From Chloroflexota bacterium (GTDB lineage: Bacteria; Chloroflexota; Limnocylindria; Limnocylindrales; CSP1-4), in NCBI GenBank assembly GCA_040905225.1, contig JBBDRY010000110.1:26395-90394 (forward strand): DNA of 64,000 nucleotides, written 5' to 3'. Numbering within the stretch: the stretch's first letter is position 1; every line of letters starts with the position of its first letter. Below the pieces are notes generated by a model. The model did not search any database. It saw only the letters and a program-made list of their open reading frames with translations, and had not been told where the DNA came from. The position numbers and the translations under genes are program-made. Positions 2,879 to 60,165 of the stretch are shown here, one piece after another.

Positions 2879-4317
2879 CTAGGCCAGGTCGGCCGCCGTC
2901 ACGCCTGCCGGCAGCGGCTCCAGGACCGATTCCGGCTGCACTCGCGCGACCACATCTGGCGGAACCCGGCACATCGGCGGGAAAGTCTCCGGCGGAGCTG
3001 GCTTGGTCATATCGAAGATCAGCTTGGTCTCCATCGGCCCCTTCTCCTCGCGGTGGTAGCCGTACGTCACCGGATTGAGGTGGCCGCCGAGGAAGTTGGG
3101 CAACATCGTCAGGTCTCGATCGGCCTGGAAACGCGTGGCCATTGCCCAGAGGGTGTCGACCTCGTTGAAGACATCGACGTCGTCGTCGACCACGAAGACA
3201 TGCTTCAAAAGAGGGTCGACCGCCAGCGCTGCGACTGCGGCGATCTTGGGCTCACCCACTACCCGCTTCTTCATCGAGATGTACAGGTGCGAGCGCGACA
3301 TGCCTGAGAGCGGCAGGTTCACGGCCGTGACAGAGGGCATCGCCTCTTTGACCCGGCGATAGATGGAGCCCATGCGTGGCAGCGCGCCGAGGATCGAGTG
3401 CTCGGTGTGGGCATTGAAGACGTCCACGAAGATCGGCTTCGCGCGCATCGTGATCGCGGTGATCTGGATGTACGGCTGCGGCCCGACGCGCGTGTAGTAG
3501 CGCGGGTACTCGCCGAACGGCCCCTCGACCTGTGTCTTCTCGGGATCGGTGTCGATGATCCCCTCGATGATGATCTCGGCCCGCGCCGGCACCTCGAGAT
3601 CGACCGTCTTGGCGCGAACCATCTCGAGCGGTTCGCCCATCAGCCCGCCCGCAACCTCGAGCTCGCCGCCGATCCCCTCGAGCTTCGACACGGCGCCCAT
3701 GAGCACAGCCGGGTGATGGCTGATAACCAGCGCGATCTCCGCTGGCTTCCCGAGCTCGCGCATGCGCCGCAGGATGTAACCGGTGTGGTGGGCAGGGTTG
3801 ACCTGGATGCCGACCTGGCGCCCTGGTATTGGTGGCGGAAGATGCCAGCGTTGACGCGGCCGCTGTCCGGGTCGCGCATGAGCGTCGCGGCTGAGGTTAT
3901 GTAACGCCCCGCGTCGAGCTCGTTGTGGACGAGCATCGGCAGCCGCCCAACGTCGATGTCGTCACCGGTCCAGACGACCTCCTGCACCGGCGCCGCGGAG
4001 GCATCAATAGTGGTAGTCGGGATGCGGTTGCCCTCACGCTTGGCGTACTCGGGGACCATGCCCTTTACATCGGTCCCGATCGAGAGCGCCAGCCGCTCGT
4101 AAGTGGCGTGCAGGTTGAGAAGCAGCGGCATCGGCGAGCCGCCGATGTTCTTGAACAGCACAGCCGGGAAGCCTGGGTAACGCGCCGGGTCGTCCTCGAT
4201 CCGATCGACAATCGCCGTCGCCTCGAACTCCGGATCGACCTGGGAAGAGACGACCTTCAGCTGGTCCGGGTACGTCCGAATCAGGAGGTCGAGATAAGTG
4301 CGCAGATCCTGGGCCAT
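2879..4317 (-). pseudogene. UbiD-family prFMN-dependent decarboxylase, copy 1, split by a 1-nt frameshift (probable assembly error)
   Basis: ORFs 3640..4317 and 2879..3763 align end to end with the intact paralog 28229..29731. The frame is lost at GGCGCC(C)AGG around 3815-3827, a C-homopolymer. Confidence 0.75.
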
Positions 4318-4555
4318 CGCGGCGCGGCGCCTCCGGAGTGACGCTGGATTGACGTCTTGGTACAGGCTATCGACGGGGCTGCTTGTCGCAACGCCGCGTT
4401 GCTATTATCGCGGCCGGACCACGATGCGGGACGGTGGTTCAGATAGCGGAATGATCGACCGCCCCAGCGGCGATCTGAGGAGGGTAGGGAGCGCGTGAGC
4501 ATTCACGTCCTTGGCGTCGCCGCGAGCCCCAGATCCACAGCCACGACTCGCCTCG

Positions 4556-6847
4556 ATGACTGAAAGCCCGGTCAGCCCGCTCGGCCAGCGCCTCCCAATG
4601 GTCGACGCGGTTGCCCGTGTCACGGGTGCGATGGACTACGCGCTCGACATCGAGCTTCCGGGCATGCTCCAAACGCGGATCCTGCGCAGCCCGCACGCCC
4701 ACGCCCGATTGGTCCGCATTGACGCGAGTCGCGCGGCCGCCCTCCGCGGCGTGACGGTCCTGACGCGCGACGACATCCTCGGCCGCGAGGACGTGAACCC
4801 CACTTTCGGCTTGTTCATCCGCGATCAGCCGCCCGTTGCCCTCGACAAGGTCCGCCACGTGGGCGACCCGGTCGCGGCCGTCGCCGCGCCGGACGACGCC
4901 GCGGCAGAGGAGGCGCTCGACCTGATCGAGGTCGAGTACGAGCCCTTGCCGGCGGTCTTCGACGTCGAAGCAGCTCTGGAGCCCGGGGCGCCGATCCTCC
5001 ACGAGGGGCCCCGATCGCTGGCCAGCCGCCGGCCGGACATCCTCGCCCGACAGCCCGGCTTCGAAGGCACGAACGTCATCCACCAGTTCATCCAGCGCAA
5101 GGGTGATGTCGATGCCGGCTTCGCGGGGGCCGACGAGGTGATCGAGCACACCTTCTACAGCCCACCCGTCCAGCACGTGCCGATGGAGCCGCATGTCGTG
5201 GTCGCGCGCTGGAGCGACAACCGCCTGACGCTGTGGGATTCGACCCAGGCGCCTAACTGGGTGCAGATCGAGCTGGCCAACCTGTTCAAGCTGTCGGCGT
5301 CGGACGTGCGCGTGATCGTCGGGACCCTCGGCGGGGGCTACGGCGGCAAGATCGACCCGTCAATCGAACCGATCGCCGCCTGGCTGGCGCGCAAGGCAAG
5401 ACGCCCGGTGCGCCTCGCGTTGAGGCGCGACGAGGAGTTCTACACGCACACCAAGCATGCGGCGCGGGTGCGCATCCGCACCGGGGCGAAGCGCGACGGC
5501 ACCCTCGTCGCCCACCAGGCGACGTGCTGGTACAACGGCGGCGCGTACGCCAAGGAGACGCCCGAGAAGATCACCCGCGGCTATGCATCGATGGGCCCGT
5601 ACCGCGTGCCCAACGTCCACGTCGACTCGTTCGGCGTGTACACGAATATCACGCCTTCCGCGGCCTTCCGCGGCTTCGGCATCCCGCAGGTCTCGTGGGC
5701 GCACGAGTCGCAGATGGACATCCTGGCCGACGCGCTCGGGCTCGATCCGCTCGAGCTTCGGCTGCGCAACGTCCTCAAAGTCGGGGACCAGTTCTCGACG
5801 GGTGAGACGATCACCGAGGACCTGCACTATCGCGAGCTGCTGAAGATTGCGGCGGAGAAGATCGGCTGGTCGGAGGGCGTCGGCCCGTTCCGGGAGGGCT
5901 CGAAGATCCGTGCCCGGGGGATCGCCACGATCATCAAGGGCATGAGCGCGTTCCCGTCGTCGGCGGTCGCCAAGCTCAACACCGACGGGTCGCTCAACGT
6001 GCTCACGGGCAGCGTCGAGATGGGCCAGGGAGCGCTCACGGCGCTGACGCAGATAGCGGCCGACGAGGCGACCCTGCCGATGAGCCGCGTTCGCGTGTCC
6101 ACACCGGATACCGCGGTGACGCCGTGGGATCAGATGTCGGCGGCGTCGCGCACGACGAACAACATGGGCAAGGCCATCCGTGGCGCGGTCGTCGACGTCA
6201 AGAAGCAGCTGCTCGAGATGGCGGCGCAGCGGTTGGAGATCTCAGTCGACGATCTCGATGTCGTAGCCGGAACGGTCCAGCCCAGGGGCTCTCCCGACAA
6301 GGCGCTGCCGTTCGCCGCCCTCCTTGGTCCGGCGCGGGTGGGCAATCTCCTCGGCCGTGGCTCGTACCAGGCCGTATCGCACCTCGACCTGGACGGCCAG
6401 GGGATCGGCTCCCCGCAGTGGCATCCGTGCGTCTGCGCGGCCGAGGTGGAGGTCGACGAGGAGACTGGTCGGACGACGATCCTCAAGATGCACATGGCGG
6501 TCTACGTGGGCAGGATGATCAATCCGCTCCAGTGCGAGCTCCAGGTCGAGGGCGCAGCGACGTTCGGCATCGGCCAGGCGCTGTTCGAGGAGATCCTCTG
6601 GGACGAGAGCGGCAACCTGACCAACCCCAATCTGTCCGACTACATGGTTCCCTCGATGCTCGACCTCCCGGCCGAATTCGGCGAGACGATCCTCGAAACC
6701 GACACGAACGAGGTGCACGGCATCGGCGAGACGGGCCTGCCGGCAGTCATGCCGGCGGTTGGCAACGCCGTCAGTCGGGCGATCGGCAAGCGCATCCCGA
6801 CTCTGCCGCTGACGCCCGAGAAAGTGCTGCGCGCCATATGGAGCTGA
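4556..6847 (+). CDS. xanthine dehydrogenase-family molybdopterin-binding large subunit (CoxL-like hydroxylase, set 1)
   Basis: ~765 aa. N-terminus LPMVDAVARVTG...LRSPHAHARL and active-site loop SAAFRGFGIPQ are XDH-type, not the CODH AYXCSFR motif. First ATG is 4556 (a TTG lies at 4511). Overlaps the next gene by 10 nt. Confidence 0.85.
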   Translation: MTESPVSPLGQRLPMVDAVARVTGAMDYALDIELPGMLQTRILRSPHAHARLVRIDASRAAALRGVTVLTRDDILGREDVNPTFGLFIRDQPPVALDKVRHVGDPVAAVAAPDDAAAEEALDLIEVEYEPLPAVFDVEAALEPGAPILHEGPRSLASRRPDILARQPGFEGTNVIHQFIQRKGDVDAGFAGADEVIEHTFYSPPVQHVPMEPHVVVARWSDNRLTLWDSTQAPNWVQIELANLFKLSASDVRVIVGTLGGGYGGKIDPSIEPIAAWLARKARRPVRLALRRDEEFYTHTKHAARVRIRTGAKRDGTLVAHQATCWYNGGAYAKETPEKITRGYASMGPYRVPNVHVDSFGVYTNITPSAAFRGFGIPQVSWAHESQMDILADALGLDPLELRLRNVLKVGDQFSTGETITEDLHYRELLKIAAEKIGWSEGVGPFREGSKIRARGIATIIKGMSAFPSSAVAKLNTDGSLNVLTGSVEMGQGALTALTQIAADEATLPMSRVRVSTPDTAVTPWDQMSAASRTTNNMGKAIRGAVVDVKKQLLEMAAQRLEISVDDLDVVAGTVQPRGSPDKALPFAALLGPARVGNLLGRGSYQAVSHLDLDGQGIGSPQWHPCVCAAEVEVDEETGRTTILKMHMAVYVGRMINPLQCELQVEGAATFGIGQALFEEILWDESGNLTNPNLSDYMVPSMLDLPAEFGETILETDTNEVHGIGETGLPAVMPAVGNAVSRAIGKRIPTLPLTPEKVLRAIWS

Positions 6848-7317
6848 TCGAGTTCGAGCTCAACGGCCGCCAGGAGGCTGTTGCCGCGCGCCCGGACGAG
6901 CTACTGCTCGACCTGCTGCGGCGGCAGTTCCACCTGTTCAGCGTCCGCGAGGCGTGCGGCATCGGCATCTGTGGCACCTGCACGGTCGTCGTCGATGGAC
7001 GCCAGGCGAGTGCGTGCCTCGTCCTCGCCGGGCAGGCGTCGGGTCGGTCGATCGAGACGGCGGAGGTACTGTCGGAAGACGGCACGCTGCATCCCATCCA
7101 GCAGGCGTTCATCGAGCACAACGCGTTCCAGTGCTCGTACTGCACGCCCGGCTTCCTCCTTGCGACGCGGGAGCTCCTGGCGACGAATCCTTCGCCGAGC
7201 GAGGACGAGATCCGTCAGTTCCTGGCCGGGAATATCTGTCGCTGCGGGAGCTACGTCAAGATCATCGAGGCCGTGGTCGATGCGGCCGGCCGGCTGCGCG
7301 CGCAGCCGCAGCGATGA
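6838..7317 (+). CDS. (2Fe-2S)-binding small subunit of molybdenum hydroxylase (CoxS-like, set 1)
   Basis: CGIGICGTCTV, CSYCTPGF and CRCGSYVKI motifs. The start sits inside the stop region of the large subunit. Confidence 0.85.
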   Translation: MELIEFELNGRQEAVAARPDELLLDLLRRQFHLFSVREACGIGICGTCTVVVDGRQASACLVLAGQASGRSIETAEVLSEDGTLHPIQQAFIEHNAFQCSYCTPGFLLATRELLATNPSPSEDEIRQFLAGNICRCGSYVKIIEAVVDAAGRLRAQPQR

Positions 7318-8150
7318 TGGCAGAGGTCGCCGACCGGACGGCAATCGCGTTCCGCCACCGATCAGCTGGCCGCGGCCGCGCGGTTGTCCTGATCCACGCG
7401 TTCCCGGTCGATGGGCGGCTCTACGACGTGCAGCTTTCCGCTGCCGAAGCCGGACGCCTGGCAGCCCGAGTAATCGCCGTCGATCTGCCCGGGTTCGGGC
7501 AGACACCTCTGCCGGACCCGGCACCGGACGTTCTGACTGTGGAGTTCCTTGCCGAGGCCGTCTGTGGCTGGATCGAGGCGGAGAGACTCGGTCCGGCGAT
7601 CGTGGGTGGCGTCGCCATCGGCGGTTACGTGGCGATCGAGCTGGCGGCTCGCCGGCCCGACCTCGTCGCGGGCCTGGTATTGATCGGTTGCAAGGCGGCG
7701 CCGGACAACCCAACGATGGCGCCGAAGCGCGAAGAGCTCGCCCAACTCGCGCTCGATCGAGGCGCCGCGGCCGTGGCCGATGAGCTCCACGCCCAGCCGC
7801 TCGGTCCGCACGCCGACGGCGCGGTGAAGGCTCGGATGCACGAGATGATCTCGTCGGCGGATCCACGCGCGATCGCGGCGCTGATCCGAGGAATCGCGCG
7901 GCGACCGGATCCAGCGCCGGTGCTGCCCGGGCTGGCCATGCCGTCCCTGGTGATCTGTGGCGAGAGGGACCCGTTCAGCCCGCTCGACGAGGCCAGGCGG
8001 GTCGCTCAGCTGATGCCGAACGCGGACCTTGTCATCATCAAGGGAGCAGGCCACATGGCCCCGCTGGAGGCTCCCATCGCCGTGAGCCGTGCGTTGGCAG
8101 GCTTCCTCGATCGACTGAACCAGAACCAAACACCAGGAGGAGCAACGTGA
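7314..8150 (+). CDS. alpha/beta hydrolase embedded in the Mo-hydroxylase operon
   Basis: 278 aa with HAFP...GFG...GGVAIGGY nucleophile-elbow context. ATGA overlap with coxS-like and GTGA overlap with coxG-like. Confidence 0.7.
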   Translation: MMAEVADRTAIAFRHRSAGRGRAVVLIHAFPVDGRLYDVQLSAAEAGRLAARVIAVDLPGFGQTPLPDPAPDVLTVEFLAEAVCGWIEAERLGPAIVGGVAIGGYVAIELAARRPDLVAGLVLIGCKAAPDNPTMAPKREELAQLALDRGAAAVADELHAQPLGPHADGAVKARMHEMISSADPRAIAALIRGIARRPDPAPVLPGLAMPSLVICGERDPFSPLDEARRVAQLMPNADLVIIKGAGHMAPLEAPIAVSRALAGFLDRLNQNQTPGGAT

Positions 8151-8668
8151 TCATCGACCAGAACGTGACCATCCCCGCACCGCCCGAGAAAGTCTGGGAC
8201 TTCATGATGGACGTGCCTGAGGTGAGCACTTGCGTCCCCGGCGTTGAAGGGTTCGCGCAGGTCTCACCCGACGTCTACAAGGGGATCCTGGGCATCAAGG
8301 TCGGCCCGATCGGTGTCCGGCTCGAGGGGCAGGTCACGTTGGTCGAGCAGGATCGCGACAACTGGCTGGCGCGGATGGATGTCGAAGCGACCGACCGGCG
8401 CATCCGCGGCGCAGTCAACGCCAAGGCGTGGATGAAGTTGACACCGCGGGAGGATGGCCAGACCGACGTCTTCATCCACACGGACGCGTCAATCTTCGGC
8501 AAGCTGGGCCAGTTCGGCCAGGCAGTGCTGCGCAAGAAGGCCGACCAGATGGTCGCCGAGTTCGCCGCGAACATGTCGCGCCGGCTGACCACGCCGCCTG
8601 CCGAAGCGGAAACGTTGGCCGAAGCGCCGGCCGAAACGTCCGCCGAAGCGCCCGCCGGCCAGTCATGA
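8147..8668 (+). CDS. coxG: CoxG-family (SRPBCC) Mo-hydroxylase accessory protein
   Basis: N-terminus MIIDQNVTIPAPPEKVWDFMMDVPEVSTCVPGVE is typical of CoxG. Ala/Glu-rich C-terminal tail. Confidence 0.7.
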   Translation: MIIDQNVTIPAPPEKVWDFMMDVPEVSTCVPGVEGFAQVSPDVYKGILGIKVGPIGVRLEGQVTLVEQDRDNWLARMDVEATDRRIRGAVNAKAWMKLTPREDGQTDVFIHTDASIFGKLGQFGQAVLRKKADQMVAEFAANMSRRLTTPPAEAETLAEAPAETSAEAPAGQS

Positions 8669-8749
8669 CCTTGAGCCTGCCCGAGACAGACTCGCGCGCC
8701 CCATTGGATACCGTTGTACTCAACGGTACCGACTGCTAAATTCGCCCTG

Positions 8750-9646
8750 ATGCCAAGATCGATTGCCTTCCTGCGTCCCGGCTCCATCGAGGAGGCCGTC
8801 GCGATGCTGGACGAGCACGGCGAGGACGCGAAGGTCGTGGCCGGCTCAACGGCACTGACGATCATGCTGCGCGAGCGGCTGATCGACCCCGGGGCGCTGG
8901 TCTGGATCGGCCGGCTCCCCGAGCCCCAACTCTCGAGGATCGAGCACGCGGATGGTGAGCTGCGGATCGGCGCGCTGGTCACGCATCGTGACGTGGAGCG
9001 CGACTCGACGACACGGTCAGTGCTGCCGGTGCTCGCGGAAACCTTCGGCAAGGTCGCCAACGTCCGCGTGCGCAACCAGGCCACGGTCGGCGGAGTTGTT
9101 GCCGAGGCCGACTATGCGTCCGATCCTCCGGCGGTATTTCTGGCCCTTGACGCGGAGGTGGACGTCCGCGGCCCGAACGGGGCGCGCACGGTCGCGATGA
9201 GCGAGTTCACGCTCTCCTTCTACTCGACCGCGTTGGAACCGAATGAGATCGTTACCGCGGTACGCGTGCCGGTGCCCCAGCCCGGCACGCATGCCGTTTA
9301 CCACAAGTTCGTGACCCGCTCGTCGGAGGACCGCCCGTGCATCGGGGTGATCGGGGTCGTCCGGCTCGCAGCTGACGGGCGAACCGCGGAGGACGTGCGT
9401 GTGGCCGTCGGAGCGGCGGCCGAGATCCCTCAGCGGTTCACGGAGCTCGAGCAGGAGCTGGTCGGCAAGGAGCTGGACGACGCGGCGATCCGAGCCATTG
9501 CCGATGGTTATGCCGAGCGGATCGACACTCTCGACGACATGCGCGGATCAGCCTGGTATCGCACACAGATGGTGCGAGTCTGGGTGCGTCGGGCCCTCGA
9601 GGACGCGCGCACCGCGGCGCAGGGCGGAGACGCGCAGGCAGCCTAA
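8750..9646 (+). CDS. FAD-binding medium subunit of molybdenum hydroxylase (CoxM-like); the only one in the window
   Basis: AFLRPGSIEEAVAMLDEHGEDAKVVAGSTAL is the FAD_binding_5 N-terminus. ORF track start 8714 is TTG; first ATG is 8750. Confidence 0.8.
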   Translation: MPRSIAFLRPGSIEEAVAMLDEHGEDAKVVAGSTALTIMLRERLIDPGALVWIGRLPEPQLSRIEHADGELRIGALVTHRDVERDSTTRSVLPVLAETFGKVANVRVRNQATVGGVVAEADYASDPPAVFLALDAEVDVRGPNGARTVAMSEFTLSFYSTALEPNEIVTAVRVPVPQPGTHAVYHKFVTRSSEDRPCIGVIGVVRLAADGRTAEDVRVAVGAAAEIPQRFTELEQELVGKELDDAAIRAIADGYAERIDTLDDMRGSAWYRTQMVRVWVRRALEDARTAAQGGDAQAA

Positions 9647-10017: not shown

Positions 10018-11188
10018 TCGCGTCCTCCTCCAGCTGTCTGATCCACTCGCGCGCCTCGCCAGTGACGACCCTGGCAGCGCGCCGCAGTGACGGTACGTCC
10101 CGGGACCCGGTCAGGTACATCGCCGCCACGAGGCCGCTCGCAAAGCGCTCGATCCATTCGTCGACGGCAGCATCGCCCGCCAGCGCGGCCTGGAGAAGCG
10201 GCCGCGCGACACCGACCGCGGTCGCGCCCATGGCAATCGCCTTCGCCGCGTCGAGGCCGGTGCGAACGCCGCCGGTGGCGATAACGGGCAGGCCCGAGCC
10301 ACTCGCGAGCGCAACGCTGACCAGCGTCGGGATCCCCCATGAGGCCAACAGCTCGCCGAGCAGCACTCCCCGGGAGTCGTGGGTCTGACGAGCGCGCGCG
10401 GCCTCGATCGCGGCGAAGCTGGTGCCGCCGCGGCCGCCGACGTCGAGCACCGCTACGCCCGCGCCGCGCAGCCGCACGGCCGTCGTTGCGGACACGCCTG
10501 CGCCAGTCTCTTTGGCGATCACCGGGACTGAAACGCGACCGGCGACCGCCTCGATCGCGGCCAGCCAGCCGCGGGCATCCGGTTGTCCCTCGGGTTGGAC
10601 GAGCTCCTGGACCGCGTTGAGGTGGATGGCCAGGGCATCGGCGCGGATCATCGCGATCAGCGCCTCGATCTCGGCCGGTTCCACCGCCGGTCGGTCTGCC
10701 TGGGGCACGAGCTGGGCGACACCGATGTTCGCGATCAGCAATGCAGTTGGCGCCGCCTCGCGCGCCGCGGCATACGTCCGCGCGAGCGCCGGCTCGATGA
10801 GCGCGGCACGTTGGCTACCGACGCCCATGGCGAGCCCGTGTCGCTCCGCCGCGCGCGCGAGCGTCGTATTGATGGTCTCGCCACCGGCGAATCCGCCGGT
10901 CATCGCGGCGATGACGAGCGGCAGGCGGAGGCGCTTCCCGAGGAGCTCTACCGAGGTATCGATATGCTCGGGTGCGGCCTCCGGCAGTGCCTCGTGCACC
11001 AGTTGGACGTCGTCGAATCCCGCCCGGCCACCACTGGGTAACTCCTCACCGGCGGCAAGTTCGACGTGTTCGCGCTTGCGCCGCTCGATCTGCGTCGTGC
11101 GCGCCTCGCGTTCAGCGTCGCCGGCACGAGGATCGAGCGTCGACGGCCGGTCCTCGGAAGTGGTCACGGCATACAATCGTATCCCCAC
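10010..11188 (-). CDS. fni: type 2 isopentenyl-diphosphate delta-isomerase (FMN-dependent IDI-2)
   Basis: ERRKREHVELA, AAMTGG, AIHLNAVQE, VIAKETGAG and IATGGVRTG align with the B. subtilis Fni pattern. Start uncertain; ~30 aa N-terminal extension in the ORF. Confidence 0.8.
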   Translation of the reverse strand: MGIRLYAVTTSEDRPSTLDPRAGDAEREARTTQIERRKREHVELAAGEELPSGGRAGFDDVQLVHEALPEAAPEHIDTSVELLGKRLRLPLVIAAMTGGFAGGETINTTLARAAERHGLAMGVGSQRAALIEPALARTYAAAREAAPTALLIANIGVAQLVPQADRPAVEPAEIEALIAMIRADALAIHLNAVQELVQPEGQPDARGWLAAIEAVAGRVSVPVIAKETGAGVSATTAVRLRGAGVAVLDVGGRGGTSFAAIEAARARQTHDSRGVLLGELLASWGIPTLVSVALASGSGLPVIATGGVRTGLDAAKAIAMGATAVGVARPLLQAALAGDAAVDEWIERFASGLVAAMYLTGSRDVPSLRRAARVVTGEAREWIRQLEEDANG

Positions 11189-11217: not shown

Positions 11218-12222
11218 ATGCCGGAGTTGCCTCGCGTCGCCCTGATCGTCACGGGCGGCACCATCGATTCCGTCGGCGTCGATCGGCTCGATCTGGCGTG
11301 GTACATCGAGGCTGCGAAGCGGCTTCCAGAAGGCGAGCTCCTCGATAGCCTGCCCGAGCTGTCGCGGGTCGCACAGGTCGCCGAGGTCCCCTTCCGGCGG
11401 ATCCCCAGCCAGGCCATAACCTTCCAGGACTGGATTGACCTCGTCCACCGAATCCACGAGACCTTCAGCGCCGACGAGGCGGACGGCATCGTGATCACCC
11501 ACGGGACGAACACCCTCGAGGAAACGGCCTACTTCCTCCACCTGACACTGAAGACCGACCGTCCAGTCGTCATCGTCGGCAGCATGCGACCGTCGTCGGG
11601 GCTGTCCGCCGACGGCTACCTCAACGTCCTGAACGCCGTCCGGGTCGCCGCCGACCCGCAGTCGCGTGGAATGGGCGTGCTGGTCGTGCTCAACGACACG
11701 ATCCACAGCGCGCGCGACGTCACCAAGACTGCGACTTATCGCCTGGAGGCGTTCCAGGGCAGGGACCTCGGCCCGCTGGGCTACTCCGACGCCGACGGCC
11801 GGGTTCTCTACTATCACCGGCCCGTTCGGCCGCACACGACCGCGACCGACTTCGACGTCGACGAGTTGGGCGCGGACATACCCCGTGTCGACCTCGTCGT
11901 CAGCTACGTCGGCGCCGACGGAAGCGCGATCGACGCCGCCGTGGCGGCCGGTGCTCGGGGGATCGTCTCGGCCGGGACGGGCGCGGGTCGGCCGACGCCG
12001 GGCGAGGATGAGGCCCTGGCGAGGGCGCGGGCGCAAGGAGTTGTCATCTGCCAGGGCACGCGAGTCGGCTCGGGTCGCACGGTGCAGAGCCCCAAGGCGC
12101 GCGAGCGCGGAGACATCGGCGCGGACAACCTCGTGCCCTGGAAGGCGCGCATCCTGCTCACCCTGGGTCTCGCGAAGACCTCCGACCCACAGGAGCTCCA
12201 GCGGCTCTTCGACAAGTACTAG
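11218..12222 (+). CDS. L-asparaginase (type II family)
   Basis: LIVTGGTIDS and GIVITHGTNTLEETAYFL match AnsB motifs. RBS-like GGAGAG precedes ATG 11218. Confidence 0.85.
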   Translation: MPELPRVALIVTGGTIDSVGVDRLDLAWYIEAAKRLPEGELLDSLPELSRVAQVAEVPFRRIPSQAITFQDWIDLVHRIHETFSADEADGIVITHGTNTLEETAYFLHLTLKTDRPVVIVGSMRPSSGLSADGYLNVLNAVRVAADPQSRGMGVLVVLNDTIHSARDVTKTATYRLEAFQGRDLGPLGYSDADGRVLYYHRPVRPHTTATDFDVDELGADIPRVDLVVSYVGADGSAIDAAVAAGARGIVSAGTGAGRPTPGEDEALARARAQGVVICQGTRVGSGRTVQSPKARERGDIGADNLVPWKARILLTLGLAKTSDPQELQRLFDKY

Positions 12223-13436
12223 CGGAGAGTCGCGAGAACCTCCAGCTCGGAGTCGCCGCGCGCTTCCTCTTCCAGGGCGAGCAGCTCGGCGCTTACCCAC
12301 ACGGTCCCGTCGAGGATGTGGCGCGCCGTTCGGCCAATGCGAACGCCGTCGATGACCACCTGGCCGTCGGCCTCGTGCGCGGTGACGAGGACGTCCATCG
12401 CGCCGTAGGGGTTGCCGATCCTGATCCGGTCTCGATCACGGCGCTGGGTCGCCGGCCGGGTAACTCGATGCACTAGCGTGCCGTCCGTGGCGGCCGCAGC
12501 GCCGATGCAGATCGCGCCGGTCACCTGGAGGGAGCGGTGGGCGGTCTGCATGCTCATCGATCGGACCAGTAGGTCGACGGCGTCGGCCGGGACTGCGTCG
12601 CCGGTTGTGGCGACGTACTCGGACGGCGGCGCAATCATCGCTACCTTGGGCAGCCCCGGGCTCTTGCTGAGCGCCACGTCGCGGGAGGGGACGATGCCCA
12701 TCCGCTCGGCCGCGATGGCTCGGATCTCCTCCAGCGTGTCGCACAGGCCGACGTTCGCCTCGATCTCGTCGGGCGCCTCGCTGCCCCGCGCGCCAACGTC
12801 CTCGGCAAGCACGAAGACGCATGGATTGCCGGCGTCGACGAGCGAAACGCGGACGGACCGGCCGTCGGCGAGCGTCATCTCTTCGTCGGGGCGACCAGTC
12901 GGCAGCAGCTTGCCGGTGACTGAGCCGGCCGGGTCGGTGAACTCGAGGTCCACTCGCGCACCGGTGCCGGGGACTCCGGGGATCGCGTAGTCGCCGTGGC
13001 GGACGGCGCGCCCGTGACGAACCGGGACGTGCGCGACGATGATCTTGCCGGTGTTCGTGTTGTGGATACGGACGATGGTCTCGCCCTCGACTGCGGGGAC
13101 AAGCCCAGCATCGATCGCGAACGGGCCGACGGCAGACGAAATGTTGCCGCAGTTACCGCCCCAGTCGACCAGCGGCGTCTTGATGTCAACCTGGGCGAAC
13201 GTGTAGTCGATGTCGGCGTCGCCGCGGCTGGGCGGTCCGATGATCGCCGCCTTGCTCGTGTTCGGCGTAGCGCCAGCCAGTCCGTTGATCTGTCGCGCGT
13301 CCGGGCTTCCGAACACGTCCCGCAGGATGGGTTCGATCCTCTCGCGAGCGTGCGGCAGATTCTTGGCGAGAAAGAAGATGCCGCGGCTCGTGCCGCCGCG
13401 CAGGATCGAGATCGGCAGCGGACGGACGTCGCTCAT
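12219..13436 (-). CDS. PrpF/AcnD-accessory-family isomerase (3-methylitaconate isomerase or 4-oxalomesaconate tautomerase-like)
   Basis: ISILRGGTSRGIFF N-terminus and ~405 aa length. Start chosen at MSDVRPL; the ORF track start 13520 adds an Arg-rich extension. Confidence 0.7.
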   Translation of the reverse strand: MSDVRPLPISILRGGTSRGIFFLAKNLPHARERIEPILRDVFGSPDARQINGLAGATPNTSKAAIIGPPSRGDADIDYTFAQVDIKTPLVDWGGNCGNISSAVGPFAIDAGLVPAVEGETIVRIHNTNTGKIIVAHVPVRHGRAVRHGDYAIPGVPGTGARVDLEFTDPAGSVTGKLLPTGRPDEEMTLADGRSVRVSLVDAGNPCVFVLAEDVGARGSEAPDEIEANVGLCDTLEEIRAIAAERMGIVPSRDVALSKSPGLPKVAMIAPPSEYVATTGDAVPADAVDLLVRSMSMQTAHRSLQVTGAICIGAAAATDGTLVHRVTRPATQRRDRDRIRIGNPYGAMDVLVTAHEADGQVVIDGVRIGRTARHILDGTVWVSAELLALEEEARGDSELEVLATLR

Positions 13437-14338
13437 TGGTTCCGATTCTCCACCTTGGCGTAACGCTCCGCCAGCACGCGGTATTCGCCGAGCCCGACGA
13501 GGCGCTGGCGCTCGTCCCACGGAAGCAGGCGATCGGCCAATGAGCCGGACGTGCCGTCGCGGCGCAGCACCGCGAGGCCTTCCTGGACGGCGCGCGCCGC
13601 GAGACGCAGCGCGGTGTTGGCGAACAGGACGATGCGGTAACCCAATGCGCCGAGCTCCGCGGCCGAGAGCTCCGGCGTCCGGCCACCCTCCACCACGTTT
13701 GCGAGCAGTGGCGCGGGGATCTCCGCCGGCAGCCGCTGGAGCACCTCGCGCGATGGCGGCGCCTCGACGAAGACGACGTCAGCGCCCGCCTCCGCGTAAG
13801 CCCGCCCACGCTCGATCGCCTCGTCCACCCCGAGGCTGGCCAGCGCGTCCGTACGGGCGATGACGACGAGATCCTGGTCCCTGCGTGCGTCGAGCACGGC
13901 CGCCAGCTTGCCCAGGAATTCCACAGCCGGGATGACCTCGGTTCCCTCGAAGTGGCCGCAATGCTTGGGGAAGACCTGATCCTCGATCTGCACACCGGCC
14001 ACGCCGGCCCGCTCAAACGCACGCATGGCACGCGCGGCGTTCAGCGCGTTGCCGTATCCGGTATCGAGATCGGCGACCACCGGCACGTCGACGGCGGCAA
14101 CGATGCGCTCGACCTGGGTGAGCATCTCGGTCGCGGTCAGGAGCCCGATGTCGGGCACGCCGAGCTGCGCGTTCGCGATGCCGGCACCCGTGGCATAGAC
14201 CGCCTCGAAGCCGGCCTCGACCACGATTCGCGCGGTCAAAGCGTCGGCGCAGCCGACCAGCAGTAGCGGATCGCCTGGGCCTTCGATGAGTGACCGCAGC
14301 TGCACCGTTGGCGAGTCAGCGCTGGTGGACCCGGACAT
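13433..14338 (-). CDS. isocitrate lyase/PEP mutase-family lyase (methylisocitrate or dimethylmalate lyase, or oxaloacetate decarboxylase-like)
   Basis: KHCGH signature, DTGYGN motif, 301 aa. 4-nt overlap with the PrpF-like gene. Confidence 0.75.
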   Translation of the reverse strand: MSGSTSADSPTVQLRSLIEGPGDPLLLVGCADALTARIVVEAGFEAVYATGAGIANAQLGVPDIGLLTATEMLTQVERIVAAVDVPVVADLDTGYGNALNAARAMRAFERAGVAGVQIEDQVFPKHCGHFEGTEVIPAVEFLGKLAAVLDARRDQDLVVIARTDALASLGVDEAIERGRAYAEAGADVVFVEAPPSREVLQRLPAEIPAPLLANVVEGGRTPELSAAELGALGYRIVLFANTALRLAARAVQEGLAVLRRDGTSGSLADRLLPWDERQRLVGLGEYRVLAERYAKVENRNQ

Positions 14339-19975: not shown

Positions 19976-19976
19976 C

Positions 19977-25895: not shown

Positions 25896-25927
25896 TGCTT
25901 ACTTCGGCTTGGAGTTAGCGGTGGTAG

Positions 25928-32667: not shown

Positions 32668-32692
32668 GCCGCAACGCGGGAGGTCGTCACGG

Positions 32693-33253: not shown

Positions 33254-33565
33254 ACCTGCAGGGCTGCCCGCACCACGACTACGGCACGCGCGCCTTAGAA
33301 GGTTGAGGGCCCAACGGGCGTAGCAAGGTGCCGCGATGCCCCCGAGCGTCGAAAGTGCACTTTCGAGGAAGTCGGCGGTAAGCGGAGGTTCCTATAGCTG
33401 GGTGCCTCCGCCAAGCGGGGAGCGCCGCTGACTTCTTTATCTTTCGGGTCCAACGGCCCGCCAGCGGACGTCCGGGTGGCGCCGAGATCCCATGACGTGG
33501 ACGCACGTCGGGTCTTTGTGTGCTTCTACCCATCCGCTCGACGCCCCGACGTCCATGAATTTTTC

Positions 33566-41118: not shown

Positions 41119-41175
41119 CAGGCTCCGATTCTTCGGGGCAAGCGGGCCGCGCACGGTTCTCGCTGCGACCATCGT

Positions 41176-54604: not shown

Positions 54605-55708
54605 GTGGAGGTGTGCGTGGTCGGCGCGGGGATCATGGGCGCAGTCACGGCCTACCACCTGTCGCGCCGCGGCGCACGAGTGATGGTGATCGAGGCCACC
54701 ACCCTGGAGCCGCGCGGCGCGAGCGCGGCGACCTTCGGCTGGATCAACGCCAACTCCAAGCAGCCGGAACACTATTTCGAGCTGAACCGCGCGGGCATGG
54801 AGGCGCACGGCGAGCTCCGCGATGCTCTCGGCGGCGGATCGTGGCTGCGCGGCGGTGGGAGCGTGGAGTGGGCCGATCCGGAAGGCGCTGCCGCTCTTCG
54901 CGCTCGCGTTGACGCGCACGCAGCGCGGGGCTACCCGGCGGAGCTGATCGATGCCGCGCGTCTCCGTGAGCTCGAGCCTGAGCTCGAACCCGAACCCTCG
55001 CCGACCGAAGTCGCCTTCTTCCCATCCGAAGGCTCGGTCGACACCGTTCCGCTGATAGGCGTCCTGCTCGCCGCCACGCAGGGCATGGGCGCCGTGATCA
55101 AGCGCGGCGTCCGCGTGACGCATCTCGACGCCGGCAGGGATGGCCGCGCCATCATCGTTCTGGACCCTTCCGAGACGATCAGAGCCGACGTGGTGGTGAA
55201 CTGCGCGGGAGCTGATGCAGGCCCGCTGGCGGTGCAGGGCGGGCTGATGGTGGATACCGGTGGTCCTGTGGGACTTAACGCCGTGACGGTCCCGGTCTCC
55301 GTTTCGCTCGGTCGGGTCGTCCGCGCGCCAGGAGTCCATTTTCGTCCCGAGCGTGGTGGCCGGATCATGATCGCGTCCCCTTCGGCCGACGCGGCGCTCG
55401 CCACAGGTACTGACACGAGCGGGTTGGCCGAGCGCCTGGTCGACGCGGCCGCACGTCATCTTCCCGGCCTCGCCGGTGCGGCCATCGAGGAGGCACGCGT
55501 CGCGCGGCGCGCGATTCCTCCGGATGGGCTACCGATTGCCGGACGCCTGGCGGACGCGCCGTGGCTTTACCACCTCGTGACCCACAGTGGCGTGACCCTC
55601 GCGCCGCTGCTGGGTCGCCTGGCGGCGGAGGAGATCCTCGGCGGCGCAGAGGACGCGCGCCTGGCGCCTTACCGTCCGGATCGATTCACCACTTCGGTAA
55701 GCTCTTGA
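54605..55708 (+). CDS. FAD-dependent oxidoreductase (DAO/glycine oxidase/sarcosine oxidase-beta family)
   Basis: VCVVGAGIMGAVTAYHLSRRGARVMVIE dinucleotide-binding motif. 367 aa. Confidence 0.75.
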   Translation: MEVCVVGAGIMGAVTAYHLSRRGARVMVIEATTLEPRGASAATFGWINANSKQPEHYFELNRAGMEAHGELRDALGGGSWLRGGGSVEWADPEGAAALRARVDAHAARGYPAELIDAARLRELEPELEPEPSPTEVAFFPSEGSVDTVPLIGVLLAATQGMGAVIKRGVRVTHLDAGRDGRAIIVLDPSETIRADVVVNCAGADAGPLAVQGGLMVDTGGPVGLNAVTVPVSVSLGRVVRAPGVHFRPERGGRIMIASPSADAALATGTDTSGLAERLVDAAARHLPGLAGAAIEEARVARRAIPPDGLPIAGRLADAPWLYHLVTHSGVTLAPLLGRLAAEEILGGAEDARLAPYRPDRFTTSVSS

Positions 55709-55789
55709 GATGCGGCTCATCGCCGAGGAGATTGTCTGCGTCCTCGCGGCCCAGGGGCTCGCGCCCAACCGTCCGCTGCGGTTACAAGC

Positions 55790-56468
55790 ATGATCTCTGT
55801 CGACGGACGCGAGGCGCTTCGGGCGCTCGCCAACCGGCCCGCGGTCGTGACGATCGATCTGCATCGCGGACACCTCGATCCCGAGGTCGCGACACTCCCG
55901 ATGCCTGCCGATCGGGCCGCGGCGCTTATGGAGCGGGTCGTCCCGCTGCTGGACCGCTACCGCGCGGCCGGGCTGCCGGTGTTCCACCTCGTGACCTGGT
56001 ATCGGGACCGCTCGGAGATCCTGAGCAACCCCATCTGGCGCTATCGCGCGGAGCGCGCGGCCGGGCTCCGCAAGCGGATCGCAGACCACAACATCGACGG
56101 AATGCCAGGCATCGAGCTGATGCCCGGAATCGCCCGGCCGGGGGACCGGATCCTGACGACGAAGAAGCGCTACGACTGCTTCGTTGGGACCGACCTGGAG
56201 TTTCGTCCTTCGCTCGGGCGACCATGACGCGCTCTTCGTGATGGGCGTTAACACCAATTCGTGTGTCCTTGCGACGTCGACTGCGGCATCGTCGCGGGAC
56301 TTCGCGGTCTTCGTGGTCGACGACGGCTGCGACTCGATGCTCGGCCGTGACCTCCACGAGGCGGCCGAATCGGTGATCAACGGATCGTTCGGATGGATCG
56401 TGACCGGCGAGCAGACGCTCGAGCTGCTCGCCGAACGAGCTGGCGCCGTCGGCGCCGCGGGAGGTTGA
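55790..56468 (+). pseudogene. isochorismatase/cysteine-hydrolase-family amidase with a 1-nt frameshift (probable assembly error)
   Basis: ORFs 55790..56227 and 56184..56468 join as ...KKRYDCFVGTDLEFVLRSGDHDALFVMGVNTNSCV... if one T is removed from the TTT at 56201-56203. Confidence 0.7.
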
Positions 56469-56470
56469 GC

Positions 56471-56680
56471 GTGCCGAGGCTGATCGTCCAGCAGATCGAA
56501 GGCCGAAGCGTCGAGCAGAAGCGCGAGCTCGCGCGGAGGCTGACGGACACCGTCGTCGACATCCTGAACGTAGACCCGGAGACCGTGACGGTGTTCATCG
56601 AGGAAGTCCCACCGGAGAATTTCGCTCGCGGCGGCGTACTCGCGGTGGACCGCCGTGCGGGGGAACGCGCTAGCGAATAG
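56471..56680 (+). CDS. 4-oxalocrotonate tautomerase-family protein
   Basis: MPRLIVQQIEGRSVEQKRELARRLTDTVVDIL has the catalytic Pro1 and aligns closely with 4-OT. 69 aa. Confidence 0.8.
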   Translation: MPRLIVQQIEGRSVEQKRELARRLTDTVVDILNVDPETVTVFIEEVPPENFARGGVLAVDRRAGERASE

Positions 56681-56689
56681 AGTCGGACC

Positions 56690-57808
56690 GTGACCGTCGA
56701 GCTCAACGGGATCCGCCTGCGCAACCGGCTGCTGACCTCGGCCAGCCTGCTCGGCTACGGTGCGGGCAAGGGCCGGCTGATCCTCTACGGGCTGTCGCCG
56801 ATCGCCCAGTGGGTGCCGCTCGAGCGGTTCGGCGCCGTCGTGACGCGGACCATGACCGTCCAGCCCCGCGAAGGCCACTTCACGCTCCGCGAGGACTGGA
56901 AGATCTGGCAGTTCCCCGAGATGCTCGGCATGTATTCGCGCGCTCTGCGCCGCGTAGACGCGGGCTGGTTGAACGCTTTCGGCTGGTCGAACATCGGGAT
57001 CGATCGGTACTTCGAGGAATACGAGCGGAGGACGCGGAAGCAGAACCGCATTCTCTCGCTAGGTGGCTTCTCTGCCGAGGAATTCGGCTCGCTCGTTGAA
57101 ACCGTGAACCAGCGCATGAAGCCGGGCGAGATTGCCGCGGTCGAGTTCAACGTCTCGTGCCACAACGTGAACTTTCCCTTCGAGACGATCCTGGAGGACG
57201 TCCTGGCGACCGCGGTTCCGCTGTCCCGCCACCCGGTCATCCTCAAGCTCTCGCCCGACTACGACTACGTCGAGCACGCCCACATGGCGGCGCGCCACGG
57301 AGTCGCCGCCCTGACCGCCATCAACGCCGTCAAGGCGCTGCGGCTGGATCCCAGGACCGGGGAGCCGCTGCTCAAGAACCGCTACGGCTCGCTGTCCGGC
57401 CGTGCCATCAAGCCGATCGGCCTGCGCATCGTTTCGGAGCTGCGGGAGGCCGGCGTCCGCCTGCCGATCATCGCGTCGGCCGGGATCCGGACGTTCGACG
57501 ACTGCCGCGAGTTCTTTTGGGCAGGTGCAGACGCAGTCTCGCTCGGCTCTGCGGTCTGGCTCAAGCCGATGCCGCTCTACGCGCTTGGCCCGCTCGAGGG
57601 TCTGCGCATCCGCCGGCTGATCGGCAAGGTCGAGCGTTACGACGTGCCCGAGCGCAAGCCTCAGCCGATCGACTTCACCCCGCACCCGCTCGAGGCTGAG
57701 CCGTACGAGGCTGAGCCGTACGACGCCGAGCCGGACGAGGCTGAGCCATACGAGGCCGGCGAGGGCGTGCGCGACGAGGCGGAGCTCGCCGGCACCGGGA
57801 CTCGTTGA
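56690..57808 (+). CDS. dihydroorotate dehydrogenase-family protein (PyrD/PreA-like TIM-barrel flavoenzyme) with an acidic EAEPY-repeat tail
   Basis: EFNVSCHNVNFP (cf. NLSCPN) and IIASAGIRTFDD are DHOD-family blocks. The C-terminus is EAEPYEAEPYDAEPDEAEPYEAGEG. Confidence 0.7.
   Translation: MTVELNGIRLRNRLLTSASLLGYGAGKGRLILYGLSPIAQWVPLERFGAVVTRTMTVQPREGHFTLREDWKIWQFPEMLGMYSRALRRVDAGWLNAFGWSNIGIDRYFEEYERRTRKQNRILSLGGFSAEEFGSLVETVNQRMKPGEIAAVEFNVSCHNVNFPFETILEDVLATAVPLSRHPVILKLSPDYDYVEHAHMAARHGVAALTAINAVKALRLDPRTGEPLLKNRYGSLSGRAIKPIGLRIVSELREAGVRLPIIASAGIRTFDDCREFFWAGADAVSLGSAVWLKPMPLYALGPLEGLRIRRLIGKVERYDVPERKPQPIDFTPHPLEAEPYEAEPYDAEPDEAEPYEAGEGVRDEAELAGTGTR
57682..57756. repeat. 15-bp imperfect tandem repeat x5 (GAGGCTGAGCCGTAC) encoding the EAEPY tail
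   Basis: Read directly. Confidence 0.85.
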
Positions 57809-58422
57809 CCCGAAAGCGACTGTCGGACGCCGGCCCTGGCCGGGAGCCGACCGCTTCGCGCTCAGCAGGGGCCGAAGGCCCGCTGCGGAGGAAGGTCGAC
57901 CGCGACGGCCTCGCTCGTGATCTGGTCGCCGCGGCCGTCCTGCGCGGCACATTCACGCTCCGGTCGGGGCAGACGAGCAGCTACTACATCGACAAGTACC
58001 GACTGACGACCGAGCCTGGGCTGCTCTCGCGCATCACCGATCGACTGGCCGAGATGGTTCCCGAAGGCATCGAGCGTGTCGCGGGCACCGCACTCGGTGC
58101 AGTCCCGCTGGCGACCGCGCTGTCGCTCGCGACCGGCCTGCCATCCGTGTTCGTGCGCGTCGACGCGGCGAAGGACCACGGGACGGGGAAGTCGATCGAG
58201 GGCCGGCTTGACGCAGGCGATCGCGTGGCGCTGGTAGAGGACGTTGTTACCACGGGCGGAGCGAGCCTGACCGCGGTTGAGCTGCTGAACGCGGCAGGTG
58301 CGCAGGTCGTGGCCGTGATCGCCGTGGTCGACCGTGAGGAGGGCGGCCGGGAGCGGTTTGTCGATGCCGGCATCTCGTTCCGCCCGCTTTTCACGGTGAC
58401 GGAGCTCGGAATCGGCGACTGA
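57805..58422 (+). CDS. orotate phosphoribosyltransferase-family protein (PyrE-like)
   Basis: LRGTFTLRSGQTSSYYID and the PRPP loop LVEDVVTTGGAS. TTGA overlap with the DHOD-like gene. Start uncertain. Confidence 0.75.
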   Translation: MTRKRLSDAGPGREPTASRSAGAEGPLRRKVDRDGLARDLVAAAVLRGTFTLRSGQTSSYYIDKYRLTTEPGLLSRITDRLAEMVPEGIERVAGTALGAVPLATALSLATGLPSVFVRVDAAKDHGTGKSIEGRLDAGDRVALVEDVVTTGGASLTAVELLNAAGAQVVAVIAVVDREEGGRERFVDAGISFRPLFTVTELGIGD

Positions 58423-59452: not shown

Positions 59453-59462
59453 CTGCATGCAG
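59453..59462. promoter_or_regulatory. 10-bp palindrome CTGCATGCAG ~90 nt upstream of ubiX
   Basis: Read directly in the 170-bp divergent intergenic region. Confidence 0.15.
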
Positions 59463-59550
59463 TCGCATCCGAGACGTCCCGCCGCGACGGTAGTCTGTTC
59501 CGGGAGGAGAGAGCACCTGTGATCTTTCAGCGGCAGGCAGGGACCGCTCG

Positions 59551-60165
59551 GTGACGGACGGTTCGCCCAGGCGGATCGTGGTCGGGATGTCCGGCTCCAG
59601 CGGCGCGATTTTCGGTATCCGCCTCCTGGAGGTGCTTTCCCGGGTCCCGGAGCTCGAGACCCACCTCGTGATGAGCACCGCGGCCGCACAGACGATCGCC
59701 CTCGAGACCGACTACAAGCCGCGCGACGTCGAGGCGCTGGCGACCAGGAGCTACAAGATCGGCGACATCGCCGCATCGCTGTCGAGCGGCTCGTTCCGGA
59801 CTGATGGCATGATCGTCGTGCCCTGCTCGATGAAGTCCGTAGCGGCCATCGCCTACGGCTACGACGAGAACCTGCTCTCGCGGGCAGCGGACGTGACGCT
59901 CAAGGAGAGGCGCCGGCTGATCGTCTGCCCCAGGGAGACGCCGCTCCACCTGGGCCACCTCCGGGCGCTCACCCAGCTGGCCGAGATCGGCGCGATCGTC
60001 GCGCCGCTGATGCCGGCGTTCTACGGCCGACCAAGCTCGATCGACGATCTCGTGGACCACCAGGTCGGACGCCTGCTCGACCTGATCGGTGTGAACGTCG
60101 AGGGGCTGGCCTTTCGCTGGCAGGGCGCGAAGAGCGCGTCGCCGGAGGCTAAGGCCGATGACTGA
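59551..60165 (+). CDS. ubiX: flavin prenyltransferase UbiX (prFMN synthase)
   Basis: [22 protein letters not shown]...[19 protein letters not shown]...[13 protein letters not shown] aligns across the whole E. coli UbiX length. 204 aa. Confidence 0.9.

Follow-up and report, generated by a model that had tools for sequence, protein, structure and literature searches.

What would three genes of the UbiD decarboxylase family, accompanied by a single gene for the flavin prenyltransferase UbiX, accomplish together on one 64-kb stretch of the genome of an uncultured soil bacterium? The stretch (from contig JBBDRY010000110.1; all 64,000 nucleotides (nt) of it are termed the window below, with a G+C content of ~68%) belongs to a Candidatus Limnocylindria-like member of the Chloroflexota, and the closest relatives of the UbiD copies are encoded by metagenome-assembled genomes (MAGs) of Chloroflexota / Candidatus Limnocylindria, the nearest being BP_601 (GCA_034667005.1; 88% amino acid (aa) identity for copy 3 and 87% for copy 2). 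Approximately 55 window genes were annotated with Pfam, 20 proteins of the island were scored against NCBIfam, and the window proteins were mapped onto a comparative set of 22 genome loci and 80 metagenome loci (compared loci and contigs are numbered L001-L101), six places also being read from precomputed Pfam tables. We consider it rather probable that the UbiDs are part of a gene island that degrades carboxylated N-heteroaromatic compounds, pyridine-type mono- and dicarboxylates being the most plausible candidates, with copies 2 and 3 serving one pathway and copy 1 recently inactivated; the decarboxylating direction, the class of substrate and the order of the steps are what we infer within this proposal. 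The coordinates of the features are collected in Table 1.

A tblastn search located exactly three UbiD-like places and one UbiX in the window. The homology and positions given in the preliminary description of this DNA hold, with the correction that copy 1 is not a single open reading frame (ORF). Copies 2 and 3 match all three Pfam domains UbiD_N, UbiD and UbiD_C (PF01977, E 2.7e-64 and 5.5e-56), copy 1 has the same three domains distributed over two reading frames, and the generic UbiD subfamily model of NCBIfam, TIGR00148, was passed. In an alignment, residues N156, R161, H180, E221, E267 and E272 (copy-1 numbering throughout) are invariant among the three copies, HmfF and PhdA. Positions N156, H180 and E221, kept in all three copies, are the equivalents of Fdc1 N168, H191 and E233, which we take to be the ligands of Mn2+ and prenylated flavin mononucleotide (prFMN). 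R161, E267 and E272, likewise kept in all three, represent the R-Xn-E-X4-(E/D) network (Fdc1 R173, E277, E282) that is required for catalysis (PMC5818171). A loss of the conserved prFMN- and metal-binding residues, which would have spoken against the original assignment, was not found, since N, R, H, E and E-X4-E are invariant in all copies. The three genes are thus predicted to encode prFMN-dependent UbiD-family decarboxylases that are new members of a known family.

The relationship between the copies is uneven. Repaired copy 1 and copy 3 share 69% aa and 72% nt identity, while copy 2 is 30-31% identical at the aa level to either of them. As judged from these comparisons, there are two UbiD lineages and not three, copies 1 and 3 being HmfF-like paralogs and copy 2 being PhdA-like; the earlier view of three divergent copies applies to copy 2 but not to the close paralogs 1 and 3, and no two copies are near-identical. 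Both subfamilies are abundant in soil metagenomes, with more than 100 clusters each at 67% identity or more; the 120 best clusters listed all reach at least 67% identity, and nearly all are nameless or automatically named.

The copies score far below the models of characterised family members. Against the UbiD equivalog NF008175 they reached 177 and 157 bits (cut-off 788), against the menaquinone decarboxylase model TIGR03701 216 and 204 bits (cut-off 496), and they fell far under the cut-offs for VdcC and phenylphosphate carboxylase too. Quinone-biosynthetic decarboxylases, either UbiD of the ubiquinone pathway or an MqnL-type enzyme of menaquinone synthesis, are suggested by the JGI label of some copy-2 homologs ('4-hydroxy-3-polyprenylbenzoate decarboxylase'); given these scores, this explanation is scarcely credible. 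No prenyltransferase or methyltransferase genes lie nearby, and no UbiA, UbiE or Mqn genes occur among the annotated window genes, so that none of the UbiDs stands beside genes for ubiquinone or menaquinone synthesis, as had been noted before. The ubiquinone-type UbiD/UbiX locus of Paracoccus, in contrast, lies beside U32-peptidase and SCP2-domain genes (likely UbiU/V/T). With scores far below the equivalog cut-offs and a placement among catabolic genes, the previously proposed catabolic role of the UbiDs is upheld.

The inactivation of copy 1 is evident from its reading frames. Its interval (2879-4317, minus strand) comprises 1439 nt, a length that is 2 mod 3, and is read as an N-terminal ORF (3640-4317, 225 aa) and a C-terminal ORF (2879-3763, 294 aa) that overlap but differ in frame; the former carries the first third of the UbiD domain and the latter the remainder together with UbiD_C. 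The frame changes at ~3818-3820, where the ortholog in L024 (Chloroflexia MAG MFD00392.bin.2.302) reads QYQGPKQVGIQ and the window QYQGA/RQVGIQ, which indicates a 4-nt deletion in copy 1 relative to that ortholog. The two are 90% identical at the aa level over the comparable part (88% for the N-terminal part), and the ratio of non-synonymous to synonymous substitution rates (dN/dS) is 0.13 upstream and 0.09-0.10 downstream of the break; the low values on both sides argue that copy 1 was under purifying selection until recently. Contigs of the Logan k-mer assembly of the public run SRR27977661 carry window genes (L028, L029), and this assembly contains 100%-identical DNA, the same 225-aa truncated product being called on L028. 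Copy 1 is therefore probably a recent pseudogene with a young break; an error common to both assemblies is the less likely alternative, and an assembly artefact was judged an unlikely cause as the SRR27977661 assembly has the same breaks in three genes. Besides copy 1, the genes concerned are those for an isochorismatase and for the amidohydrolase adjoining ubiX, and the disruption of three genes of this catabolic island within 64 kb suggests decay of the pathway in this strain. The L024 ortholog of copy 1, intact at the window frameshift site, has a frame change of its own further downstream (~11070-11080, after ...TAVNLP), which may be an assembly error of that MAG.

For copy 3, the best solved relative is HmfF (6H6V, from Pelotomaculum thermopropionicum; E 5e-81, 276 bits, with 174 bits for the next match). 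HmfF, known also as HmfF/HmfG from Cupriavidus basilensis, has the three-domain architecture of copies 1 and 3 and resembles them in the catalytic motif, in His297 and in its dependence on a UbiX partner, and its substrate is a heteroaromatic acid with carboxyls flanking the heteroatom. HmfF His297, which is equivalent to HudA N318, is described as key to furan specificity (PMC7976604), and the corresponding residue is a His in copies 1 and 3 (AHxEH versus ASREH in the alignment). These resemblances are the basis of the chief rival explanation, according to which copies 1 and 3 are genuine orthologs of HmfF and, as 2,5-furandicarboxylate (FDCA) decarboxylases, supply a Trudgill-type furoate pathway whose furoyl-coenzyme A (CoA) dehydrogenase is a molybdenum (Mo) hydroxylase. 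It is favoured further by the JGI label of homologs ('2,5-furandicarboxylate decarboxylase 1'), by the divergent position of copy 1 relative to a three-subunit Mo operon with an enol-lactonase-like alpha/beta hydrolase, and by a family III CoA-transferase in the window. We nevertheless regard it as unlikely, since copy 1 is only ~38% identical to the HmfF chain and copy 3 29-34% identical to proteobacterial UbiX-paired UbiDs, including an hmfFG-like pair, and since neither an AMP-forming ligase/furoyl-CoA synthetase nor a GMC oxidase (HmfH) nor a crotonase-type HmfE is found among the annotated window genes. Furthermore, the partners differ from those of the hmf pathway, being an EamA transporter, a bicupin, Mo hydroxylases, a cyclic amidohydrolase and a second UbiD type, and the operons of relatives join the gene with a cyclic amidohydrolase, a dihydroorotate-dehydrogenase-like (DHODH-like) reductase, PrpF and a further UbiD. 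That these operons encode enzymes for the handling of nitrogen weakens the furan explanation.

Copy 2 has a different best solved relative, PhdA of Mycobacterium fortuitum (7PDA; E 5.5e-107, 362 bits, with 199 bits for the next match), a phenazine-1-carboxylate decarboxylase and hence an enzyme for an N-heteroaromatic carboxylate. Approximately half of the residues are identical, as estimated by eye from the HMMER alignment, and Asp325/Asn326 of copy 2 occupy the position of HmfF His297 and HudA N318, like the Asp-Gln of PhdA. The partners of copy 2, a cyclic amidohydrolase and Mo hydroxylases, are not those of a phd-type operon, and phenazine genes are not present in the window. That HmfF and PhdA, the closest relatives of copies 3 and 2, both act on heteroaromatic acids was counted in favour of an N-heteroaromatic substrate. 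With NCBIfam, copy 2 scores best against phenylphosphate carboxylase subunit beta (310 bits), and in one group of metagenome loci (L077-type) the copy-3-like and copy-2-like genes abut (stop 7961, start 7962), raising the possibility that the two types form a hetero-oligomeric (de)carboxylase like phenylphosphate carboxylase alpha/beta, perhaps working in the carboxylating direction. This is very unlikely, as 310 bits is well under the cut-off of 469, the alpha model gave 191 and 119 bits against 565, neither a gamma or delta subunit nor a phenylphosphate synthase was found, both proteins carry full catalytic motifs, the genes lie on opposite strands in the window and in BP_601, and genes of O2-dependent dioxygenase type occur in the context. 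The orthologs of copies 2 and 3 in BP_601 show dN/dS values of 0.115 and 0.143, respectively; the exact copy 2 product is present on Logan contig L001, and an exact-protein look-up of copy 3 returned no record.

The neighbourhoods of both types are conserved among relatives. Of the 22 genome loci, 12 (L004-L010, L012, L013, L025 and others) have EamA directly ahead of the copy-3-type UbiD, and EamA precedes it in most Limnocylindria loci, which agrees with the DMT transporter reported ahead of one UbiD: in the window the EamA gene ends 8 nt ahead of copy 3 and forms one string with copy 3 and the bicupin. The bicupin follows the copy-3-type gene in L008-L011 and L030, succeeded by a 4-oxalocrotonate tautomerase (4-OT), a DAO oxidoreductase and a phosphoribosyltransferase (PRTase), and in the same loci an Amdase-like gene, a short-chain dehydrogenase/reductase (SDR) and an NMT1-type ATP-binding cassette (ABC) system lie upstream; the divergent position of the Amdase-like gene is kept in L005, L008, L009, L010 and L030. 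The DAO, isochorismatase, 4-OT, DHODH-like and PRTase genes adjoin EamA-UbiD3 (UbiD2 and UbiD3 denoting copy-2-type and copy-3-type genes) in L006, L012, L013, L030, L042 and L051, and PrpF and the isocitrate-lyase-family (ICL-family) lyase adjoin copy-3-type UbiDs in L007 and L019. Directly downstream of copy-2-type UbiDs, a cyclic amidohydrolase is found in 16 of 52 metagenome loci (also in L002, L013, L014 and L033) and a Mo hydroxylase large subunit in 28 of 52.

Linkage between the two types is equally recurrent, a copy-3-type gene lying directly upstream of a copy-2-type gene in 24 of 51 metagenome loci. L051 reads, all on a single strand, EamA-UbiD3-ICL-like-PrpF-UbiD2-amidohydrolase-MoFAD-MoL (MoFAD, MoL and MoS being Mo hydroxylase subunits), and L042 reads CoxG-DHOdh-like-UbiX-MoFAD-MoL-MoS-UbiD2-amidohydrolase. 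Orthologs of Mo hydroxylase 'c' precede copy-2-type UbiDs (MoFAD-MoL_c-MoS_c by UbiD2-CycAmidase in L042, L052 and L066), and L033 combines ABC, amidohydrolase, isochorismatase and RidA genes with FAD, MoL, FeS, UbiD2 and DHOase-like genes and, further on, MoL, MoL, FeS, UbiD and DUF3891. A soil clade has a tandem operon of UbiD (551 aa), DUF3891, copy-3-like, copy-2-like, MoL, FAD, MoL, FeS, substrate-binding protein and permease, and in BP_601 EamA-UbiD3 converges with UbiD2-amidohydrolase, a third UbiD bringing the number to three within 20 kb. This recurrent linkage indicates that the window genes are a rearranged version of one recurrent set consisting of two UbiD types, Mo hydroxylases, UbiX and a ring-opening amidohydrolase. 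Among the tandem loci, L077 (3714-16804; also L078-L101) has a G+C content of 55-57% and holds three UbiDs, DUF3891, two MoL, one FAD, one FeS and an NMT1-type ABC transporter; DUF3891 flanks UbiD genes in L003 and L033 as well.

These arrangements bear on the initial suggestion that the three UbiDs have three different substrates. Three independent decarboxylases for three unrelated compounds would be in keeping with the identities between the copies (30-31% for copy 2 against copies 1 and 3, 69% between the latter) and with their differing neighbours in the window (a Rieske-less hydroxylase and Mo operon 'a'; an amidohydrolase; EamA and the bicupin). We give this explanation little credence, as several lineages unite the copy-2 and copy-3 types in one operon, this strain has a disrupted copy 1, and the neighbouring modules, shuffled as they are among relatives, remain within one gene set. 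With copy 1 frameshifted, copies 1 and 3 close paralogs and the copy-2 and copy-3 types repeatedly co-operonic elsewhere, the suggestion is not substantiated; instead, the occurrence of the latter two in common operons with Mo hydroxylases, cyclic amidohydrolase and UbiX argues for one common pathway rather than unrelated substrates.

The sole UbiX passed its NCBIfam models (NF004685, 253 bits against a cut-off of 188; TIGR00421, 237 against 109), and among solved structures it is closest to 1SBZ (197 bits), followed by PAD1 and UbiX. The gene overlaps the frameshifted amidohydrolase gene by 8 nt, and in L005, L006, L024 and L042 UbiX is co-operonic with a Mo hydroxylase and a UbiD.

A catabolic island for N-heteroaromatic carboxylates would accommodate these observations as follows. 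The single UbiX would supply prFMN to all UbiDs. The HmfF-like copy 3 would act from an operon that also provides an EamA importer and a bicupin dioxygenase, and the PhdA-like copy 2 from one that provides the cyclic amidohydrolase; within one pathway, the two would remove ring carboxyls before or after a Mo hydroxylase hydroxylates the ring next to its nitrogen. The ring may then be reduced by the DHODH-like enzyme, opened by the cyclic amidohydrolase or the bicupin, and deamidated by asparaginase and isochorismatase, with the PrpF isomerase and the ICL-family lyase handling the carbon chain. Copy 1 would represent a copy 3 paralog that was tied to Mo operon 'a' until the recent 4-nt deletion inactivated it in this strain. 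Mo hydroxylases, a DHODH-like enzyme, cyclic amidohydrolases, amidases, PrpF and an ICL-family lyase all fit an N-heterocycle, for which a carboxylate of pyridine type is the most parsimonious guess.

Several points weigh against this proposal. Mo hydroxylases of this family also take furoyl-CoA, 4-hydroxybenzoyl-CoA, aldehydes and CO, and with so wide a substrate range they are no proof of an N-heterocycle; UbiD enzymes are reversible, which leaves room for the carboxylating direction on sequence grounds. Additionally, no NCBIfam equivalog was reached by any UbiD, Mo hydroxylase, hydrolase, bicupin, DHODH-like protein or PrpF among the 20 island proteins, the models passed being limited to generic UbiD and UbiX models, a pyrE domain model and, marginally, an allantoinase model. 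The window genes are spread over 57 kb, with copies 2 and 3 convergent and not co-transcribed, and the 20 tandem loci compared form one clade (83-100% aa identity) and therefore count as one lineage and not as independent observations. Finally, the Logan contigs may stem from the same reads as the window and so may not be an independent confirmation of the frameshift.

Table 1. Positions of the UbiD and UbiX genes and of further island features in the window.
Feature	Position	Strand	Basis and remarks
Ring-hydroxylase catalytic-domain homolog	1814-2869	-	PF11723 the sole match; 9 nt downstream of copy 1
UbiD copy 1, C-terminal part	2879-3817	-	UbiD and UbiD_C; catalytic EGPFGE present
UbiD copy 1, N-terminal part	3820-4317	-	166 in-frame codons, then out of frame to 3640; UbiD_N and start of UbiD domain
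Mo hydroxylase operon 'a'	4556-9646	+	Large subunit, 2Fe-2S subunit, alpha/beta hydrolase, CoxG, FAD subunit (Pfam); divergent from copy 1
PrpF-family isomerase	12219-13436	-	Pfam, NCBIfam
PEP-mutase/isocitrate-lyase-family lyase	13433-14305	-	Pfam, NCBIfam; 4-nt overlap with PrpF gene
Mo hydroxylase 'b', 2Fe-2S and large subunit	15985-18776	+	Pfam
UbiD copy 2, PhdA-like, intact	21860-23356	+	498 aa; Pfam UbiD domains
Cyclic amidohydrolase (allantoinase/dihydroorotase/hydantoinase type)	23425-24846	+	Amidohydro_1; 68 nt downstream of copy 2
Bicupin, gentisate-1,2-dioxygenase-like	27020-28135	-	Cupin_2 twice; 93 nt downstream of copy 3
UbiD copy 3, HmfF-like, intact	28229-29731	-	500 aa; Pfam UbiD domains
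EamA/DMT transporter	29740-30603	-	PF00892; 8 nt upstream of copy 3
Amdase / Asp-Glu-racemase-family protein (maleate-isomerase-like)	31083-31805	+	PF17645; divergent from EamA-UbiD3 operon
Mo hydroxylase 'c'	38099-41100 (end approximate)	-	2Fe-2S subunit 38099-38737, large subunit 38734 to ~41100; Pfam
DAO-type FAD oxidoreductase, isochorismatase, 4-OT, DHODH-like, PyrE-like cluster	54605-58422	+	Pfam, NCBIfam; gene calls on Logan contig L029
Isochorismatase, frameshifted	55790-56227 / 56184-56468	+	145 + 94 aa; same split in Logan assembly
4-OT tautomerase	56465-56680	+	
DHODH-like (DHO_dh-like) reductase	56690-57808	+	
PyrE-like PRTase	57805-58422	+	
UbiX flavin prenyltransferase	59551-60165	+	204 aa; PF02441 E 3.3e-42; sole UbiX in window
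Amidohydrolase adjoining ubiX, frameshifted	60158-61452	+	163 + 287 aa; same split in Logan assembly
CoxD/CoxE-type maturation genes	61684-63842		

The neighbour of copy 1 had been described as a Rieske-like oxygenase. This is correct in so far as its product has PF11723, the catalytic domain of homotrimeric ring hydroxylases, within which lies an H-x4-H motif (GHAKFLH), but the product has no Rieske ligands (CxH...CxxH), no Rieske Pfam match and no Cys in its first 100 residues, which leaves it unable to hold a Rieske [2Fe-2S] cluster. The ortholog in L024 (~12400-13500; 84% identical) likewise lacks the Rieske ligands, indicating that this architecture characterises the family and does not stem from a local loss. 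L024 also has the same divergent arrangement of copy 1 and Mo operon, with UbiX within the operon.

Three Mo hydroxylases of the xanthine-dehydrogenase family lie in the island, and transport is represented by two ABC systems, two EamA transporters and one major facilitator superfamily (MFS) transporter. Further island genes encode an asparaginase, an RraA-like aldolase, a luciferase-like oxygenase and a GntR regulator. The product of the amidohydrolase gene behind copy 2 passed the allantoinase model TIGR03178 marginally (373 bits, cut-off 357.85), with dihydroorotase and hydantoinase models close behind. The PyrE-, DHODH- and dihydroorotase-like neighbours suggested an orotate decarboxylase, an idea for which nothing specific was found and which stands as one substrate candidate.

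Between the bicupin and amidohydrolase genes (24994-26977, minus strand) lie a gene with a GmrSD_N restriction endonuclease domain and one for a 218-aa protein without a Pfam match; as neither is at this position in BP_601, the pair has the appearance of an insertion at the point where UbiD3 and UbiD2 converge. The region 41068-47583 (plus strand) encodes hydantoinase A, hydantoinase B with a C-terminal acetone-carboxylase-gamma-like domain, the family III CoA-transferase and a short citrate-synthase-like (citryl-CoA-lyase-like) protein; in L011 and L025, the same string stands behind the UbiD3 operon. When ORFs are called mechanically on the opposite strand, the Mo large subunit is fused with the 5' end of the region, which gives a spurious ORF of 1327 aa. 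A lower G+C content (0.60-0.62 versus ~0.68) was seen at 1-2000 and 32000-33500, where a DUF5677-like ORF (912-1811) and a matrixin-like fragment (32146-32667) are located, and these stretches, at the margins of catabolic modules, may be of foreign origin or in decay.

Among known systems, lumazine breakdown provides an experimentally demonstrated precedent. In Cupriavidus sp. LA-1, cluster I combines a Mo hydroxylase (lumazine dehydrogenase), a UbiD (XCDC, xanthine-8-carboxylate decarboxylase) and UbiX in one inducible cluster, and XCDC is inactive on FDCA and furoate (PMC12391406). The logic of a Mo hydroxylase, a UbiD and UbiX for an N-heterocycle is the same, although lumazine breakdown also depends on a pterin deaminase and an amidase-signature isomerase, two enzymes not seen in the window. 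In the literature on UbiDs for pyridine dicarboxylates, quinolinate, dipicolinate, orotate and purine intermediates, the lumazine pathway was the one characterised case found. Two plasmid matches considered as XCDC clusters were discarded, as the UbiD/UbiX pair of Paracoccus kondratievae has U32-peptidase and SCP2-domain genes for neighbours and probably serves O2-independent ubiquinone synthesis, and that of Paraburkholderia is an hmfFG-like pair. A megablast of plasmid DNA with 24 kb of the window gave nothing beyond short ABC-transporter matches.

The phthalate locus on plasmid 2 of Aromatoleum aromaticum EbN1 (L027, 67067-82551) has three UbiD and two UbiX genes with ABC and DMT transporters, and its uncharacterised middle UbiD next to these transporters (WP_011255029), 46% identical to copy 2 at the aa level, is the closest plasmid-borne relative of that copy. 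The EbN1 system differs in being anaerobic and in needing CoA esters and CoA-transferases, and its phthaloyl-CoA decarboxylase is ~25% identical to the window copies. The nicotinate fermentation cluster of Eubacterium barkeri (Alhapel et al. 2006) reportedly comprises a Mo hydroxylase, a ring reductase, an amidohydrolase-type ring opening, a PrpF isomerase and an ICL-family lyase, without a UbiD. It would thus share the enzyme families of the island minus UbiD, and it differs in its B12 mutase and dimethylmaleate hydratase, which were not seen in the window.

The window therefore contains new, uncharacterised UbiD members in a conserved but undescribed catabolic context, and it offers in copy 1 a natural example of recent paralog loss. 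A bolder idea, which we regard as doubtful, is that copy-3-type and copy-2-type UbiDs, two Mo hydroxylases, UbiX and the cyclic amidohydrolase make up a widespread, undescribed pathway of soil bacteria for a pyridine dicarboxylate that proceeds via two successive prFMN-dependent decarboxylations. Dipicolinate from bacterial spores would be its most attractive candidate substrate since, like FDCA, it has a carboxyl on each carbon flanking the heteroatom, and if true the pathway would be a second dipicolinate route, independent of the dip monooxygenase pathway. There is demand for UbiDs as catalysts of reversible C-H carboxylation, and the substrate specificity of few of them is known; assigning substrates to the copies described here would add new heteroaromatic (de)carboxylases and could show how uncultured Chloroflexota and other soil bacteria recycle carboxylated N-heterocycles, for example pyridine carboxylates, spore dipicolinate or nucleobase-like acids.

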